Part shown: in pieces, positions 141 through 5,049 of the stretch
How positions within the stretch are numbered: the stretch's first letter is position 1
Layout of the letters: every line of letters begins with the position of its first letter
Source of the DNA: a virus
IMG/VR virus record: IMGVR_UViG_3300045988_031434
Reading direction: 5' to 3' (one strand)
Length of the DNA: 5,131 nt
Position numbers and translations under genes: made by a program
The notes under the pieces: generated by a model
Told to the model about the DNA's origin: nothing
The model's database searches: none
The model's input: the letters and a program-made list of their open reading frames with translations, nothing else

Positions 141-623
141 CTATTTTTGTGTTTCTTCATTATTTTGTTCTAAAGTGTTACTTTTTTCTTGCATTTGTTC
201 ACTACTTACGGACTGTTGTGGTTCGTCAAAGGTAGATTTACTACCATACAGACCTTGTTGTCGGAGATATTCGAGCGTTGCAGGATCATTCAAATGGTCG
301 ATGAAATTCATAGGATCATGACCAAATTTTGCTCGAACGTAAGCGGGTAAACTGTAGAATTCTTCACGAACTCCGGACACAAGCTCAAGAGCTGTGCTGT
401 AGTCGCCGGGAAGCGTTGCATCTCCAAACTGCAGGTAAGCGTATTGCGAACTATCACCGAGGTCAAGAGTCATAATACCTTTCTGACCGTCTGCATACTT
501 ATTTACGATGTAATTAATATCAGTTTCTTCTTTCTCGTCCTGAACCGTAAGAGAGGGCATGGTAAACTCAATGCCGCAATGATCATGATCTTCTACAGGA
601 TCATAAGCTGTCTTAAATTTCAT
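141..623 (-). CDS. VP3: Internal scaffolding protein VP3 (160 aa)
   Basis: Gokushovirus VP3 hallmarks are present: EFTMPSLTVQD..EETDINYIVNKY, then F.SLPA.VR.KF..DP..FI..L.DP. ATG at 623 is preceded by AAGGAGGTGA (637..628) with a 4-nt spacer. The GTG at 641 used by the ORF track lies upstream of that SD and is unlikely. Stop is TAG at 141..143. Confidence 0.88.
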   Translation of the reverse strand: MKFKTAYDPVEDHDHCGIEFTMPSLTVQDEKEETDINYIVNKYADGQKGIMTLDLGDSSQYAYLQFGDATLPGDYSTALELVSGVREEFYSLPAYVRAKFGHDPMNFIDHLNDPATLEYLRQQGLYGSKSTFDEPQQSVSSEQMQEKSNTLEQNNEETQK

Positions 624-642
624 AGTTTCACCTCCTTTCACA

Positions 643-723: not shown

Positions 724-752
724 AGATTATCATTTAGTAGAATCACTGTCAA
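724..752 (-). promoter_or_regulatory. Weak candidate sigma70 promoter: TTGACA-N17-TAATCT with an extended -10 TG
   Basis: The -35 TTGACA is at 752..747. The 17-nt spacer contains TG at 732..731, and the -10 TAATCT is at 729..724, matching only 3/6 of TATAAT. It lies at the 3' end of the VP5-like gene and fires straight into the terminator at 706..672. Confidence 0.3.
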
Positions 753-1020
753 TAGTCTGCACATACTCTATGGCGCGACCAACAATGACAGGAATGTGGG
801 ACTCGTCACAATTCTCAATGTAATAGCGACCGTCGCTGTCACCGAGATTACCAACATAATAAAGAGAAAAGTCTTCAGGATACTTTTTAATAAGCATTTT
901 ATCATCGTTAACTATACCCTCAAAAGCTCGCAGAGCGAGCATATCGTTATGATAAACCTGCGGAGGACTGAACTGTTCAGCCTTGGAGTCATAAATGGAA
1001 TAAAGTCTCAGCGGAACCAT
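730..1020 (-). CDS. VP5: VP5-like non-structural protein (96 aa from ATG 1020; 102 aa if TTG 1038 is used)
   Basis: The pattern LYSIYDSKAEQFSPP....N...ALRAFEGIVND......KYPEDFSLYYVGNLGDSDG resembles the gokushovirus ORF5/VP5 family (hydrophobic-YD-K ... A.R.F ... PED[FY].L..[IV]G). It sits in the conserved position between VP4 and VP3. The start is uncertain: ATG 1020 abuts AAGGAG with no spacer, and TTG 1038 has only a weak AGGT 6 nt upstream. Confidence 0.65.
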   Translation of the reverse strand: MVPLRLYSIYDSKAEQFSPPQVYHNDMLALRAFEGIVNDDKMLIKKYPEDFSLYYVGNLGDSDGRYYIENCDESHIPVIVGRAIEYVQTIDSDSTK

Positions 1021-1228
1021 CTCCTTTTCTAAATGCAATTAAATACCTACGAATCATAAGATAAAGCATAGCTGATATAACAAAATAGTCATTATCAAGC
1101 CGAATAACCCTAGAACCATCAGGCTTAAGACGGTAAGCGGCATATTTACTACCACGAAAAGAGTAGTCAAAAGAAATATTACGATAACGACAGAAATTTT
1201 TAACAGCTTCAAATTCACTAATAAGCAT
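989..1228 (-). CDS. Hypothetical small protein (79-80 aa), an orphan accessory ORF between VP4 and VP5
   Basis: This is the only open frame filling the roughly 220-nt gap between the VP4 stop and the VP5 start. A near-consensus promoter and an AGGTGAT SD precede it. The start is ambiguous: GTG 1231 and ATG 1228 lie inside the SD, and ATT 1222 lies 4 nt after it. The 3' end overlaps the VP5-like start by 32-50 nt. I recognise no motif. Confidence 0.45.
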   Translation of the reverse strand: MLISEFEAVKNFCRYRNISFDYSFRGSKYAAYRLKPDGSRVIRLDNDYFVISAMLYLMIRRYLIAFRKGDGSAETLFHL

Positions 1229-1246
1229 CACCTCATTTCTGACTAA

Positions 1247-1275
1247 ATAGTAACACAGTCATAATACTTTGTCAA
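1247..1275 (-). promoter_or_regulatory. Candidate sigma70 promoter: TTGACA-N17-(TGt)TACTAT
   Basis: The -35 TTGACA (1275..1270) is a perfect consensus. The spacer is exactly 17 nt with an extended -10 TG at 1255..1254, and the -10 TACTAT is at 1252..1247. It overlaps the VP4 stop codon (1259..1261). The predicted TSS near 1240 gives a leader of about 10 nt before the AGGTGAT SD of the 80-aa ORF. Confidence 0.5.
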
Positions 1276-2170
1276 GCTTTCTGCCGAGAAAAAACTTATA
1301 CTTACCTTCCTGAACACGACAGCGGTCAACCAAACGCTCAAAAGTATTATTCTCCAAGTTATGAAGCATCTTCTCAATACGATTATAACGAATATATTCC
1401 ATCCAGTGAGGATGCGTTTCGTCAAATTTTTTATCATAATAACGAGGAGGACGCATCTTTTTGCCGTTGATAACAACATAATCATTGGCATAGCATTCTT
1501 CACCATGGTCTTCGAGCCATTTAGCACCTATGCCGGGACGATTGGAAGCAACCATGAATTCAGGAATACGACCTTTATAGTGAGAAGGAGCATCTTTACC
1601 TGTCTGCTTTTTAACTATATAGCGAGCGACATAGGCAGCAGAATCAAAGCTAAACTCACCAATAAGATGCAAACCGTATTTCCATACTTTGGCAAAACGA
1701 GAAGAAGTATAAGTATTATAACCATCTGTCCGGAAACGAAAAATTTTGTCATCAAAATCAATATTAAACAAAATGTAATGATAATGGGGACGACCATGAA
1801 GTTCACCATATTCACCACAGCCAAGAAAGCGAATACCACTGCCATACTCACGACGAAGATTTTTCATGAAAGTCTGATGAAATTTCTTGCTTAAGCTTTT
1901 ATCACGTGGCAAATGATAATCGTCGAAAGTGCAAGTGACGAAATAAGCAGAAGACGAAGAACGGGCTTCGTGAACAGCACGGACAGCCCACTGTCTACTA
2001 TTTTCGAGACGACAACCAATGCATTGTTTACAAGAACAACGAATGAAGCGGCTATCGCAAGCAAGCTCAGGGTGAGAGGCAAGGCTACCGTAAAAACTAT
2101 AATGTTGTTTTCCACTTTTAGTAATCGCTCCTTCAACCGAGCACATAAGAATAGGATTATAACAAACCAT
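1259..2170 (-). CDS. VP4: Replication initiation protein VP4 (HUH rolling-circle endonuclease, 303 aa)
   Basis: Motifs present are a Cys cluster CKQCIGCRLENSRQWAVR, motif I FVTCTFDD, HUH motif II RPHYHYILFN (HYH at 1778..1786), and motif III with two tyrosines AAYVARYIVKK (Y codons at 1631..1633 and 1619..1621). ATG at 2170 is preceded by AGGTGAT (2181..2175) and a 4-nt spacer. The GTG at 2179 used by the ORF track lies inside that SD. Confidence 0.92.
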   Translation of the reverse strand: MVCYNPILMCSVEGAITKSGKQHYSFYGSLASHPELACDSRFIRCSCKQCIGCRLENSRQWAVRAVHEARSSSSAYFVTCTFDDYHLPRDKSLSKKFHQTFMKNLRREYGSGIRFLGCGEYGELHGRPHYHYILFNIDFDDKIFRFRTDGYNTYTSSRFAKVWKYGLHLIGEFSFDSAAYVARYIVKKQTGKDAPSHYKGRIPEFMVASNRPGIGAKWLEDHGEECYANDYVVINGKKMRPPRYYDKKFDETHPHWMEYIRYNRIEKMLHNLENNTFERLVDRCRVQEGKYKFFLGRKLDKVL

Positions 2171-2187
2171 ATTAATCACCTGTACCG

Positions 2188-2216
2188 ATTGTATCAGGAT
2201 TAAATCAGAATGTCAA
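2188..2216 (-). promoter_or_regulatory. Candidate sigma70 promoter for VP4: TTGACA-N17-TACAAT
   Basis: The -35 TTGACA (2216..2211) is a perfect consensus and contains the VP8-like stop codon TGA (2215..2213). The spacer is exactly 17 nt. The -10 TACAAT (2193..2188) matches TATAAT at 5/6. The predicted TSS near 2181 coincides with the start of the VP4 SD. Confidence 0.55.
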
Positions 2217-2323
2217 ATCCTAAAACCACCTCGTCCTACTCTCTTAAAATTTCTACGCCTAGATCTGGAGGTACGCCGAAAAAGACGACGAGAACCTCGT
2301 TTAGATAAACGACGACGTCTCAT
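2213..2323 (-). CDS. VP8: Arginine-rich DNA-binding peptide, VP8 / phiX174 J-like (36 aa): MRRRRLSKRGSRRLFRRTSRSRRRNFKRVGRGGFRI
   Basis: I translated this by hand; it is too short for the supplied ORF track. It has 16 Arg and 2 Lys in 36 residues and no acidic residue. GGAGG at 2336..2332 lies 7 nt upstream of the ATG (2323..2321). The ATG overlaps the upstream stop as ATGA. Its position between VP2 and VP4 matches gokushovirus ORF8/VP8. Confidence 0.8.
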   Translation of the reverse strand: MRRRRLSKRGSRRLFRRTSRSRRRNFKRVGRGGFRI

Positions 2324-2559
2324 TTAGCATCCCTCCAAGAACCGAAAAAACGGCTAGTTTTTTTAGAATCATTCTTATTAGCAACTGGCTCAACAAGTTG
2401 CGCAACATCGGCTTGAAAATCCGAGGCAACCTTTTTAGCAGTAACAGTATTCGAAGAAGCTTTACCTTTCAGAGCTTCGATCAGATCTACAACTTCCTGA
2501 ATAAAAGGGACAACAACAGAAACGATAAAAGTAAGAATCATAGTAGTTTTATTAGACAT
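2320..2559 (-). CDS. Small protein with one N-terminal hydrophobic helix (79 aa); function unknown, candidate membrane or lysis protein
   Basis: ATG at 2559 is preceded by GGAAGGAG (2575..2568) and an 8-nt spacer. This initiation region is nearly identical to that of VP2. The N-terminus is MSNKTT, then MILTFIVSVVVPFI, then a polar, charged tail. The gene starts 4 nt after the VP2 stop, and its own stop overlaps the VP8-like start (ATGA). The TTG at 2577 used by the ORF track lies just upstream of the SD and abuts it. Confidence 0.65.
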   Translation of the reverse strand: MSNKTTMILTFIVSVVVPFIQEVVDLIEALKGKASSNTVTAKKVASDFQADVAQLVEPVANKNDSKKTSRFFGSWRDAK

Positions 2560-2563
2560 AAAA

Positions 2564-3292
2564 TTAACTCCTTCCAAAATAACGACCTCCGAAGAAGCCT
2601 ATAACATTTTTGATAGCAGAACCAACGCCAGTAGCAACAGATCTGGGAGCGCCTGTAAGACTTTCAAGATTCTTATAAAAATCACGTTCCATACCTGCCA
2701 TTTCAGTTTGAATATTATCAAAAGCAGCAGAAGAATTAGCCTTGTTAGCAGAAGCAATATTATTCAAAATACCAGAGCTAATATAAGAACCCTGAAGCCG
2801 AAGGTTTTCAAGCTCCAAATTCATCCTTTCAAGTTCGTAACCAAGGCGCTTTTCATAAGTCTGCTCACGAAGATTCAAATCATTTGCAAGAATACCATTC
2901 TGAAGAACTATACCATGGGTGCTCTGACGCACAGAATCGGCATCTGCGACGTTTTTTTCAATTTGAGATACTGAAAGATTCTCGGCATTCTTAGCCTGCC
3001 TTTCAGCGGCGCTAGCGGCTCTAGCAGAGTTCATGGTAGAACCTATATCACTCATACCTACAGAAGCAGCCGAAGCACCAGATATAGAACCGCCTATACC
3101 ATTAGTAGCGGCAAGAATAGGATTAAGGCCAGCCTTGCGCATATCTTCTACAGCCCATTGATAACGATGTTTATAGTTTTCAACGTTCCAAGCGTTAGCC
3201 TGTGCGGCATTAGCAGAATTGTAATGATTCTGAACTGCAGATCCTAAAACAGAACCAGCAACACTGCCTAAAGTATTAGAAAGCCATGACAT
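2564..3292 (-). CDS. VP2: Minor capsid / DNA pilot protein VP2 (242 aa)
   Basis: It has a Gly/Ser/Ala-rich N-terminus and then the conserved core YKHRYQWAVEDMRKAGLNPILAA, typical of Microviridae VP2/H-type pilot proteins. A long heptad-like helical segment follows (LNLREQTYEKRLGYELERMNLELENLRLQ). AAGGAG (3306..3301) follows the VP1 stop directly, with an 8-nt spacer to the ATG at 3292. Confidence 0.88.
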   Translation of the reverse strand: MSWLSNTLGSVAGSVLGSAVQNHYNSANAAQANAWNVENYKHRYQWAVEDMRKAGLNPILAATNGIGGSISGASAASVGMSDIGSTMNSARAASAAERQAKNAENLSVSQIEKNVADADSVRQSTHGIVLQNGILANDLNLREQTYEKRLGYELERMNLELENLRLQGSYISSGILNNIASANKANSSAAFDNIQTEMAGMERDFYKNLESLTGAPRSVATGVGSAIKNVIGFFGGRYFGRS

Positions 3293-3306: not shown

Positions 3307-5049
3307 CTAGAAATGATCAACAAGGCCGGGAGTACCAAACATAGGCATAGGACGCACAGTAGTGTAACGGAAGCCTATGTCAAGCAAGAATTCAGGCTCA
3401 CTGGGAACAGCGATAATACGCTCAATAGGTGGATTTTCGACTATGAATTCTTCATTAAGAGTTGGAGCATTTTTAAAGAACTGGGACAAATGCCACATAT
3501 CCAAAGAACCATTAACTACAGAACTACGAAACTTACCTGTAATTTGCGAAGGTTTATAGCGATATTCGGCATAACGTTCCTGATAGCCAAAAACAGTAGT
3601 ATCAGCTTCAGAACCCTGAGCATAAATCTCACGAAGCTCAATAGCCTGTTCGCCAAGATGAGCGAATGTAGTCCAATAAAAATCATAAACAGTAGAGCGA
3701 AGCCACATCTTGTTAATACCCTGCTGATAAGTAAGATCAGCACGAGCACATACAAAACCAAAAATATAGCCATGCTCAACAAAAGACTTATTAAAACCAT
3801 GGAACTTAGCGGCAGTAACACCATAAGCAGAGAGATTGCCTTGAGGAGAGATATCGTCGGTTGCAGAAGTTTGAGCTATTGGATTGACATTTATCATTTT
3901 GGTAAAGGAGCCGAGAAATTCAGGACGCTGAAGACGGGCGTCCGGAGAAACTACACCAAAGAAAGAACGGAGCACTTCTGTATACCGAGTACCACCACGA
4001 GCAAGACGTTCATAGAACTTCTGCATCTGGAAAGCTGTGCGAAGACTGTTGATTGTAAAAATGCTTGAAGAGTCCAAATCAACATAAGAATCATTGCCAA
4101 GGTAAGCAGAACCAACTTGAGCAGAAATAGTTACCGGACCATCAGTATTACCAGCAAAACCGCCTACAGTACTAAATTCAGAAGCATAACGGGAGAACGT
4201 AACAACTCCATTACCTGATGCCATTCTTTTACCGCCTGAAGAAGAGGCGCTACCGCCATAAGCAGAAACAGCGGCGAGCTGATTAGCGTTACTATGGAGA
4301 AGATAGCCATTATCAGGTGTAGGGTCAACTATAGAAGCAGTACCAGCAAGACCTATAGAAACACCTGGTCCCTTCTGTGTCCAGGGCAGAGCAGAAGTGA
4401 AGTAATCATGGCGCTTACCGCGAGGGGGGCAAGGATATCCGGGAAAAATGTTAGATCCAGACTTGAACAACCAAGAAGGTTGATCAGAAACCCGGGCAGA
4501 GTTTAAAACTTCGTTAGTATCGCCTTTCTGAATCTTGACGGATTTTTGGAGGTTTTCATCTCTAAACCATTCATTCCAAATAAGGTAAACACCACGAAAC
4601 GGAAGAGCACTAATACCAGATATATTACCAGACGTATTTACGGGCAAACCGAAATAGTCCCAAAGAGAGCCTATGTAGTCATTTTTAGAGTTACCAGTAG
4701 CAGAAACGGTAGGGATAACATAATCAGTGCTATCATCAGGGTCTTCCTGCTCAAAGCAGAAGTTCTGCCAATGTTCCCAAACGAGGCGGTTTGGTACAAA
4801 AAAGAAAAACCAGTCCAGATAAATATTATCCATGATAGGCTTAATAGGAGTAGCCAAACGAGCGAAGTAATTAACAGACATACGAGCAGTATCGCCAGGC
4901 AAAACCTCATCAACAAATACAGGTATAAGCTTGCCTGAATCAAAAGTTGTCTTATAAACATGGGAACGGTCAAACTTAGTCCTTTTCATGTACATTGCAG
5001 GAGCATCGCTGAAGCGATGTCCTCGAACTCTTATTTTTTTTTGAGCCAA
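3307..5049 (-). CDS. VP1: Major capsid protein VP1 (F-like, 580 aa) with an apparent TTG start
   Basis: Conserved gokushovirus VP1 blocks include HRFSDAP...FDRSH.YKTTFDSGKLIPVFVDEVLPGDT, RHDYFTSALPWTQKGP, TINSLRTAFQMQKFYERLARGGTRYTEVLRSFFGV.SPDARLQRPEFLG and GYQERYAEYRYKPS. The frame opens after an in-frame TAA at 5083..5085, and no ATG or GTG occurs before TTG 5049. AGGTGAT (5059..5053) lies 3 nt upstream of that TTG. Confidence 0.93.
   Translation of the reverse strand: MAQKKIRVRGHRFSDAPAMYMKRTKFDRSHVYKTTFDSGKLIPVFVDEVLPGDTARMSVNYFARLATPIKPIMDNIYLDWFFFFVPNRLVWEHWQNFCFEQEDPDDSTDYVIPTVSATGNSKNDYIGSLWDYFGLPVNTSGNISGISALPFRGVYLIWNEWFRDENLQKSVKIQKGDTNEVLNSARVSDQPSWLFKSGSNIFPGYPCPPRGKRHDYFTSALPWTQKGPGVSIGLAGTASIVDPTPDNGYLLHSNANQLAAVSAYGGSASSSGGKRMASGNGVVTFSRYASEFSTVGGFAGNTDGPVTISAQVGSAYLGNDSYVDLDSSSIFTINSLRTAFQMQKFYERLARGGTRYTEVLRSFFGVVSPDARLQRPEFLGSFTKMINVNPIAQTSATDDISPQGNLSAYGVTAAKFHGFNKSFVEHGYIFGFVCARADLTYQQGINKMWLRSTVYDFYWTTFAHLGEQAIELREIYAQGSEADTTVFGYQERYAEYRYKPSQITGKFRSSVVNGSLDMWHLSQFFKNAPTLNEEFIVENPPIERIIAVPSEPEFLLDIGFRYTTVRPMPMFGTPGLVDHF

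Follow-up and report, generated by a model that had tools for sequence, protein, structure and literature searches.

The stretch of DNA analyzed here (IMG/VR record IMGVR_UViG_3300045988_031434; 5,131 nucleotides [nt], hereafter the window) is filled by an essentially complete gokushovirus genome in which every gene lies on the minus strand. Genes were assigned from the list of open reading frames (ORFs) together with matches in PHROGs and Pfam (Table 1). We focused on ORF79, a small gene between those for the DNA pilot protein VP2 and a VP8-like protein, and considered whether its product could act in host lysis. ORF79 runs from an ATG at 2559..2557 to a TGA at 2322..2320 and encodes MSNKTTMILTFIVSVVVPFIQEVVDLIEALKGKASSNTVTAKKVASDFQADVAQLVEPVANKNDSKKTSRFFGSWRDAK (79 amino acids [aa]), which begins with MSNKTTMILTFIVSVVVPFIQ. 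The VP2 stop codon (TAA, 2566..2564) leaves a gap of 4 nt before this ATG, and the last ORF79 codons run into the VP8 start codon (ATG, 2323..2321). The initial annotation, made from the letters of the window and their translations, had described an extra gene wedged between VP2 and VP8 (giving no strand), with a strong Shine-Dalgarno (SD) sequence 8 nt from its ATG, a start 4 nt past the VP2 stop, and an ATGA overlap with the next gene. All four points hold: the ORFs and the PHROG and Pfam assignments of the neighbors place the gene between VP2 and VP8 on the minus strand, the SD is GGAAGGAG at 2575..2568, and the gap and the overlap are as described. These expression signals extend to related genomes. 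A GGAGG-type SD was found at an equal distance from the ORF79 start in 17/17 GenBank relatives; the SD in the window equals those of the structural genes in strength. Each of the 12 close relatives examined has the ATGA overlap, and the VP8 start lies 11 to 65 nt downstream in distant lineages.

Table 1. Features of the gokushovirus genome in the window, with ORF79 and its parts listed first
Feature	Coordinates	Strand	Basis or remark
ORF79 coding sequence, 79 aa plus TGA stop	2559..2320	-	Translation; full-length PHROG match, member of phrog_23638
SD of ORF79, GGAAGGAG	2575..2568	-	8-nt spacer to ATG; inside the final VP2 codons
N-terminal module, residues 1-32 (MSNKTTMILTFIVSVVVPFIQEVVDLIEALKG)	2464..2559	-	Alignments; predicted helix, core 5-20 plus acidic amphipathic continuation
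Hydrophobic core, residues 5-20 (TTMILTFIVSVVVPFI)	2500..2547	-	Hydropathy; candidate membrane-spanning or membrane-inserting segment
Polar variable linker, residues 33-66	2362..2463	-	Length of ∼25-55 residues across the family
Basic C-terminal motif, residues 67-79 (KTSRFFGSWRDAK)	2323..2361	-	S69-R70-F71 invariant across the family
Nucleotide-invariant block, ORF79 codons ∼54-79	2326..2400	-	Synonymous sites frozen; holds the VP8 SD TGGAGGG
ATGA overlap of ORF79 stop and VP8 start	2320..2323	-	Translational coupling
VP2, DNA pilot protein, upstream neighbor of ORF79	3292..2564	-	phrog_8693, E = 1.9e-94
VP8-like/J-like Arg-rich 36-aa protein, coupled gene downstream of ORF79	2323..2213	-	Weak match to phrog_10695
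VP1	5049..3307	-	Pfam Phage_F, E = 3e-164
VP4, Rep	2179 or 2170..1259	-	PHROGs and Pfam
orf80, 80-aa ORF without assignment	1231..989	-	ORF translation
VP5	1038..730	-	Pfam Phage_ORF5
VP3, scaffold	641..141	-	Pfam Chlamy_scaf

ORF79 is a real gene, with the look of one that is translated, and purifying selection on it is strong, far beyond what a chance ORF would show. Its frame was uninterrupted and its start codon kept in 90/90 distinct relatives, and the pooled in-frame ratio of nonsynonymous to synonymous differences (pN/pS) was 0.06 (n = 89), compared with 3.1 and 16 in the other two forward frames. The corresponding ratios were 0.08 for VP8, which is likewise kept in relatives, 0.07 to 0.09 for VP4, and 0.16 for the N-terminal half of VP2. 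Third codon positions held 41 of the 64 variable ORF79 columns in a smaller set of sequences. A lack of conservation or of purifying selection had been named at the outset as a finding that would count against the proposed lysis or membrane role; what we saw was the opposite.

Toward its 3′ end, ORF79 is also constrained at the nucleotide level. Over a block of ∼75 nt that ends at the VP8 start codon, the non-consensus fraction per column was 0.002 to 0.02, compared with 0.03 to 0.09 elsewhere, and the last 13 codons (67 to 79) hardly changed at all (pS of 0.012 versus 0.20 to 0.30 upstream). The same block holds a possible small hairpin (AGCCG-UUUUUU-CGGUU). The invariance of the 3′ third of ORF79 (2400..2326), which includes its synonymous sites, could be taken to mean that ORF79 encodes no functional protein and that the frame is open only through nucleotide constraints, such as a promoter, an RNA structure, or the VP8 initiation region. 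Codons 1 to 66, however, show normal synonymous divergence (pS of 0.20 to 0.30) with a pN of 0.011 to 0.020, the protein is recognizable across lineages that differ at most nucleotides and keeps its C-terminal Ser-Arg-Phe (SRF) through different codons, and every relative keeps the start codon and SD. We regard this explanation as vanishingly improbable and effectively refuted.

In alignments, the ORF79 protein is tripartite, with a conserved N-terminal helix, a variable linker, and a conserved C-terminal SRF motif. AlphaFold2 modeled one long helix, with predicted local distance difference test (pLDDT) scores of 92 to 97 for residues 1 to 30 and below 60 afterwards. Within this helix, the hydrophobic core TTMILTFIVSVVVPFI is followed by the acidic amphipathic stretch QEVVDLIEALKG, with a hydrophobic moment of up to 0.46. 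Residues M1, K4, I8, L9, F11, P18, F19, I20, D25, I27, L30, K31, and G32 are near-invariant across the family, and among them I8, L9, F11, P18, F19, I20, D25, I27, and G32 do not vary at all. Among close relatives, the ratio ω of the helix was 0.037 at a pS of 0.30. Across lineages, the first 32 residues are 62 to 81% identical; the same genomes share 52 to 69% in VP1, 34 to 57% in VP2, and 26 to 50% in VP4. Judged from these alignments, the constraint on the helix is sequence specific and goes beyond hydrophobicity, as the ω value and the invariant Pro18, Phe11, Phe19, and Asp25 indicate.

The rest of the protein behaves differently in its two parts. The linker had pLDDT scores of 49 to 58, an ω of 0.10, and 19 to 48% identity across lineages. 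The C-terminal motif (KTSRFFGSWRDAK in the window) occurs within the family in the variants SRFFGSWRDAK, SRFLSKSKK, SRFIGRD, and SRFLQNNR, and the codons for its first three residues vary by lineage (AGC, TCT, TCC, or TCA; CGT, AGA, or CGA; and TTT or TTC). Because distant lineages use different codons for SRF, its conservation acts at the level of the protein. The architecture first proposed for the product, an N-terminal hydrophobic helix with a soluble charged tail, stands as far as the helix is concerned and needs revision for the tail, which is polar and slightly basic and consists of a variable, low-confidence linker plus the conserved SRF motif. Inspection by eye for a signal peptide or a lipoprotein signal found neither: the protein has no Cys, and the core continues into the acidic amphipathic helix QEVVDLIEALKG with no small-residue cleavage region.

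To assess the membrane character of the helix, we used several hydropathy measures. The Kyte-Doolittle (KD) 19-residue maximum of ORF79 was 2.06 at residues 6 to 24 (classical threshold, 1.6). No other protein in the genome exceeded 1.6, the next being the unassigned orf80, which has an aromatic-rich, moderately hydrophobic stretch with a KD value of 1.49. The uncharged run TTMILTFIVSVVVPFI spans 16 residues, and the purely hydrophobic core, which contains a Pro, spans 14 to 16. The Wimley-White octanol sum over 19 residues was favorable (−5.96 kcal/mol) and a simple flat Hessa sum was unfavorable (+4.2), the latter partly because of Pro18 and Gln21/Glu22. For reference proteins, the KD and Hessa values were 2.79 and −3.4 for phiX174 E (with a 24-residue uncharged run), 1.74 and +3.4 for MS2 L, and 1.61 and +4.3 for lambda S. 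These scores place ORF79 within the hydropathy range of accepted membrane lysis proteins and well below E. The charges flanking the core (+1 before it and −1 in the 15 residues after it) give no clear topology. It is plausible that the helix is a membrane-spanning segment, and the hydropathy values suggest that ORF79 probably inserts into a membrane.

We then examined how widely ORF79 is distributed. A megablast search with the whole genome found 10 GenBank gokushovirus genomes, from human, pig, and dog feces, that cover at least 80% of the window, the nearest with ∼91 to 92% identity. By tblastn, ORF79 was present in 20 GenBank records and was 100% identical to the product of KX513872. It lies directly after VP2 in 17/17 fetched GenBank records and holds the same position at 72 survey loci. 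Among PHROGs, it matched phrog_23638, a family of unknown function, from end to end (E = 3.7e-51; residues 1 to 79 against profile positions 1 to 79 of 79). A profile search and a synteny comparison had both been proposed in the initial annotation, and both returned positive results. The gene is annotated as a hypothetical protein in KX513872, KX513867, KX513874, and MG883714 and is unannotated in other records; the GenBank protein entries of the family, from human, pig, and dog gut gokushoviruses, include ARQ16029.1 (KX513872), ARQ16008.1, ARQ16039.1, and AYQ58156.1. One copy labeled “nucleoside diphosphate kinase” by JGI is a misannotation. The phrog_23638 and GenBank homologues are full length, sit in the same position directly after VP2, and have the same coupling to VP8; there is no difference of substance between them and the gene in the window. 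ORF79 is not new as a sequence: it is a GenBank hypothetical protein with a PHROG family of its own, and that family is without an assigned function. The window is a new genome variant that bears an already catalogued gene.

The borders of the gene are drawn differently in some of the deposited records. In MG945719 (L012; 4233-4826), the frame continues open from the ORF79 homologue upstream into VP2, and both are covered by one deposited feature (4251-4826). In OP971933 (L003), OP971938 (L010), and KT264819 (L011), VP2 as annotated and the start of ORF79, which bears no annotation, have 8 nt in common.

Beyond GenBank, IMG/VR held 261 further relatives of ORF79, and a large protein collection held 494 to 654 clusters at 90% identity, nearly all on contigs of ∼5 kb. 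A hidden Markov model profile built from 22 sequences, run against 1.84 billion cluster representatives, gave 31 matches at E values of ≤1e-3. All were 33 to 117 aa in length, apart from one low-complexity repeat artifact (P0221, 750 aa) and a few chimeric assemblies (P0222, P0223, and P0226), which we discarded. ORF79 was found in 20 of the 2,877 GenBank microvirus records that have a VP1 homologue, and in a VP1 neighbor-joining tree the genomes bearing it form one clade (two leaves, L003 and L012, are unflagged in the tree through an ORF-length limit in the flagging, and both encode the gene). Because the clade is single, ORF79 must have arisen once and been kept while VP1 diverged to ∼52% identity; the gene is clade specific and of single origin.

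We also surveyed the slot that ORF79 occupies, between VP2 and the next core gene. A transmembrane (TM)-type ORF of at least 50 aa was present there in 71/77 genomes within the ORF79 clade and in 6/172 other analyzable gokushovirus genomes, which came from four other samples and whose ORFs are mutually unrelated. With so few genomes and no kinship among their ORFs, a general gokushovirus “TM cassette” after VP2 was rejected. Different small ORFs with a strong N-terminal TM segment lie directly after VP2 in a few unrelated gokushoviruses, namely, L105 (MK496736, a capybara microvirus; 2747-3019), L256 (4421-4597), and L278 (2990-3175). The one in L105 reaches a KD value of 2.87, with 19 uncharged residues in a run and a basic tail. 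Such ORFs may have been acquired independently, as analogues of ORF79 in its slot. In L243 to L322, relatives of Dulem virus 127 (PP511428), the interval from VP2 to the next core gene averages ∼495 nt, and the ORF survey found little there.

A scan of a genome collection found no prophage with ORF79. Its sole match was a whole-phage contig binned in a Clostridiales metagenome-assembled genome (MAG), which is the only clue to the host. ORF79-bearing contigs of ∼10 kb were considered as prophages that might provide a host link and were rejected as assembly dimers. Among the long contigs, L323 (GCA_019971555.1, JAHXDV010000481.1) is an inverted (palindromic) duplication of one genome, and L324 (JGI 3300076492) is a tandem join of two related strains; neither contig is a prophage. 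The window has a GC content of 40% and GGAGG-type SD sites at most genes, and this combination argues against a Bacteroidetes host.

Homology searches did not reveal a function. In Pfam, PHROGs, NCBIfam, PADLOC, PDB sequences, and Foldseek searches of PDB and BFVD, ORF79 had no characterized homologue; there were zero Pfam families at E values of ≤1, and the sole PHROG match is the family of unknown function described above. Matches to the PADLOC “4TM effector” (14 bits) and to VapB in NCBIfam (13 bits) were noise. Homology to a known structural protein, which according to the initial annotation would have redirected the proposal, was looked for in Pfam, PHROGs, PDB, and Foldseek, and none was found. 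A literature search found no description of ORF79 or of any gokushovirus lysis protein, in agreement with the initial statement that gokushoviruses lack a recognized E homologue and with published accounts, which recognize no E-like lysis gene (PMC7062461; PMC3394797) and in one case call it “markedly absent” (PMC7062461).

Other potential lysis genes were sought in the same genome. No peptidase, lysozyme, or amidase domain was present in any ORF of the window or in the called genes of related genomes. As candidates for an overprinted E-like gene, we considered hydrophobic alternative-frame ORFs in VP1, VP2, VP4, and VP5 that are open in many relatives. Their own-frame ω values were 0.8 to 2.5 (all above 1 except that of the VP5 ORF, 0.82), which indicates no purifying selection on these frames and a signal that belongs to the main frame, and they were rejected. 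ORF79 is therefore the best candidate, and the only one found, for a lysis gene in this genome.

Among characterized systems, the lysis protein E of phiX174, a type I single-gene lysis protein that inhibits MraY and depends on SlyD, is the closest in kind. Both proteins are small (79 versus 91 aa) and have an N-terminal hydrophobic helix with a conserved proline and a polar, net-basic tail; both genes stand immediately upstream of a gene for a small basic DNA-binding protein (VP8 or J) in a phage without an endolysin. The N-terminal transmembrane domain (TMD) is the most constrained part of E, as the helix is in ORF79. The two differ in that there is no sequence similarity (no Pfam family, E included, is matched by ORF79 at the threshold given above), in that E is overprinted in the external scaffolding gene D, which gokushoviruses lack, whereas ORF79 occupies coding space of its own, and in that the core of ORF79 is shorter and much less hydrophobic (16 versus 24 residues; KD of 2.06 versus 2.79). 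ORF79 also has an extra conserved motif, SRF, at its C terminus. By analogy, phiX174 E is the protein that ORF79 would most resemble in function, yet ORF79 is no member of the E family and is a bona fide member of phrog_23638.

Two further comparisons are informative. Like the single-gene lysis proteins (Sgls) of leviviruses (MS2 L, LysM, and Sgl-PP7), ORF79 is small, nonenzymatic, TM-grade in hydropathy, and lineage specific, and it occurs in a minimal phage genome; unlike them, as they are mostly embedded in other genes and fast evolving (PMC7693330), it is free-standing, monophyletic, and strongly conserved. With the M15 peptidase genes of Microviridae, which are presumed to act in lysis, ORF79 shares an accessory slot between VP1/VP2 and VP4. 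Those peptidases are enzymes acquired horizontally from bacteria, whereas ORF79 has no enzymatic domain and, in the genome-collection scan and the profile search described above, no cellular homologues.

These observations can be joined into a proposal for the function of ORF79. The protein would be expressed with the late genes in the order VP1-VP2-ORF79-VP8, and its N-terminal helix (residues ∼5 to 31) would insert into the host cytoplasmic membrane and engage a conserved membrane component of the host. ORF79 would then be the lysis effector of its clade and a nonenzymatic single-gene lysis protein, as phiX174 E and the levivirus Sgls are in functional terms, and would act either by blocking a membrane step in the supply of cell wall precursors or through direct membrane damage. 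The helix is conserved to a higher degree than the structural and replication proteins of the phage itself, which points to a conserved component of the host as its probable partner and away from a phage protein that coevolves with it. Lysis would be the most economical role for a host-directed membrane protein in an eight-gene lytic phage that has no assigned lysis function. By elimination and analogy, then, we tentatively favor a host-directed membrane protein that causes lysis through a specific target, with rather more doubt than confidence.

Published work provides a frame for this proposal. In other microvirus families, the interval from VP1/VP2 to VP4 houses lysis-associated accessory genes, namely, those for M15 peptidases (PMC9239249; PMC3394797). 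In a screen of levivirus ORFs selected by minimum length, SD, and predicted TMD (criteria in PMC7693330), ∼10% proved lytic although the host was a surrogate. ORF79 has the traits by which Sgls are screened (small, nonenzymatic, preceded by an SD, and with TM-grade hydropathy in a genome with no muralytic domain), and such traits are no proof of function. Counting further for lysis, ORF79 adds proven selection to the traits used in the levivirus screen, and it has a single origin and long retention in a monophyletic clade. A more detailed version of the proposal would make ORF79 the first gokushovirus lysis protein, a free-standing and strongly conserved Sgl whose invariant helix (I8, L9, F11, P18, F19, I20, and D25) binds a conserved membrane enzyme of cell wall precursor synthesis or export and whose SRF motif recruits a second factor, in an uncultured gut host that is possibly a member of the Clostridia or Negativicutes. 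We consider this version rather doubtful.

Several observations weigh against a role in lysis. The enterogokushovirus EC6098, which has six genes and lacks a protein of this kind, lyses E. coli (PMC7062461), so a different way to lyse the host evidently exists among gokushoviruses. Of the other gokushoviruses surveyed, ∼97% (166/172) lack a small TM ORF in the slot, and the few ORFs found there outside the clade are of separate kinds. Sgls evolve fast and have little mutual similarity (PMC7693330), while ORF79 is among the most conserved genes of its genome. The hydrophobic core is short and interrupted by Pro, with a Hessa sum on the unfavorable side where that of phiX174 E is favorable, and none of the databases searched offers a characterized homologue. 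The tight coupling between two genes for virion proteins would suit a role in structure or assembly just as well, a simple lysis model does not account for the conserved SRF motif, and the only clue to the host is the binning in a Clostridiales MAG. The lysis candidacy put forward in the initial annotation is thus upheld in part: ORF79 is the only membrane-grade protein of the genome and has no competing peptidase or overprinted ORF, and it lacks homology to E, has a short core, and is restricted to one clade.

An alternative is that ORF79 is an accessory of the virion, of assembly, or of DNA delivery that works with VP2, VP8, or both, either as a packaged protein that helps to penetrate the membrane at entry or as an assembly tether acting through SRF, much as scaffolding proteins employ short conserved motifs at their C termini. 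The gene is inside the structural block, 4 nt past VP2 and coupled to VP8, the SDs of the structural genes are no stronger than its own, and its purifying selection matches that of the core genes. A helix with a flexible linker and a short terminal motif is also typical of tether- or scaffold-like proteins, and VP2-like pilot proteins with predicted N-terminal transmembrane domains, described by Roux et al. (PMC3394797), are a precedent for a membrane-active virion component. Most gokushoviruses, however, assemble and infect without ORF79, and its helix is more conserved than VP1 and VP2, which would not be expected if it coevolved with them. We also looked for direct ties to VP2. A fusion to or derivation from VP2 was rejected, as the exhaustive profile search described above found no VP2-sized homologues among its 1.84 billion representatives. 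The N-terminal hydropathy of VP2 had a median of 0.91 in the ORF79 clade, which lies within the span of the other clades (0.38 to 1.27); hydrophobicity there is not reduced, and nothing points to a split pilot protein. A C-terminal docking peptide shared by the two proteins (RYFG in VP2 and RFFG in ORF79) was dropped, as the two motifs do not covary across lineages. On balance, we consider a virion or assembly role possible but rather unlikely.

ORF79 could also modulate the host in ways unrelated to lysis, by excluding superinfection, by blocking a receptor or an uptake channel, or by interfering with a defense or membrane process. Exclusion and immunity factors are common among the small membrane proteins of phages, and the small membrane-type architecture, the clade-specific presence in a known accessory slot, and the strongly conserved helix, with the conserved host partner that it suggests, would all fit such a role. 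Exclusion genes are usually patchy in distribution, though, and ORF79 is intact in every one of the 90 close relatives; nor was there a match to a PADLOC or other defense model beyond the 14-bit hydrophobic one. This role seems unlikely to us. A variant of the lysis proposal would make ORF79 a holin-like partner that permeabilizes the membrane and leaves lysis to host autolysins or to an unrecognized muralytic enzyme. A single hydrophobic helix followed by a charged tail would suit a holin, and some gut gokushoviruses carry M15 peptidases, with Clostridiales suggested as hosts for some by Roux et al. (PMC3394797). This genome and its relatives, in turn, have no endolysin or peptidase gene, and the strong sequence-specific conservation of the helix, Pro18 included, agrees less well with generic hole formation than with a specific protein target; we consider the holin variant improbable.

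Elsewhere in the window, three further features drew our attention. The unassigned orf80 (989..1231, minus strand; 79 to 80 aa) is flanked by VP4 and VP5 and shares sequence with the start of VP5. It was intact in 75/75 distinct relatives with a pN/pS of ∼0.44, is called by automated gene callers, and has an equivalent in MG883714 that is annotated as hypothetical; it had no match in Pfam, PHROGs, NCBIfam, or PADLOC. A second invariant block (2176..2235, minus strand) falls on a sequence close to the consensus of a sigma-70-type promoter, which has an extended −10 TG and lies a short distance upstream of the VP4 start: TTGACA (2216..2211) and TACAAT (2193..2188) are separated by a 17-nt spacer and match at 11 of 12 positions. 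For VP4 itself, the ATG at 2170 agrees with the 303-aa VP4 annotated in relatives. Two weak terminator-like hairpins with T runs were found on the minus strand, at 2584..2599 in the last VP2 codons just before the ORF79 SD and at 2288..2300 inside VP8, compared with 0.4 expected from shuffled sequences.

Gokushoviruses are among the most abundant single-stranded DNA phages of guts and oceans, and no lysis gene is known from them (PMC7062461). ORF79 provides a concrete, well-delimited, and evolutionarily validated lysis candidate for one abundant human and pig gut clade, and at 240 nt it is easily synthesized and expressed. A lytic ORF79 would be the first lysis protein identified in a gokushovirus and would found a new family of Sgls, or “protein antibiotics,” with its near-invariant helix of 32 residues indicating a new target interface for protein antibiotics outside the Proteobacteria. 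If it is not lytic, ORF79 would be a clade-defining eighth gene that, through its part in entry, assembly, or exclusion, would enlarge the minimal set of gokushovirus genes.

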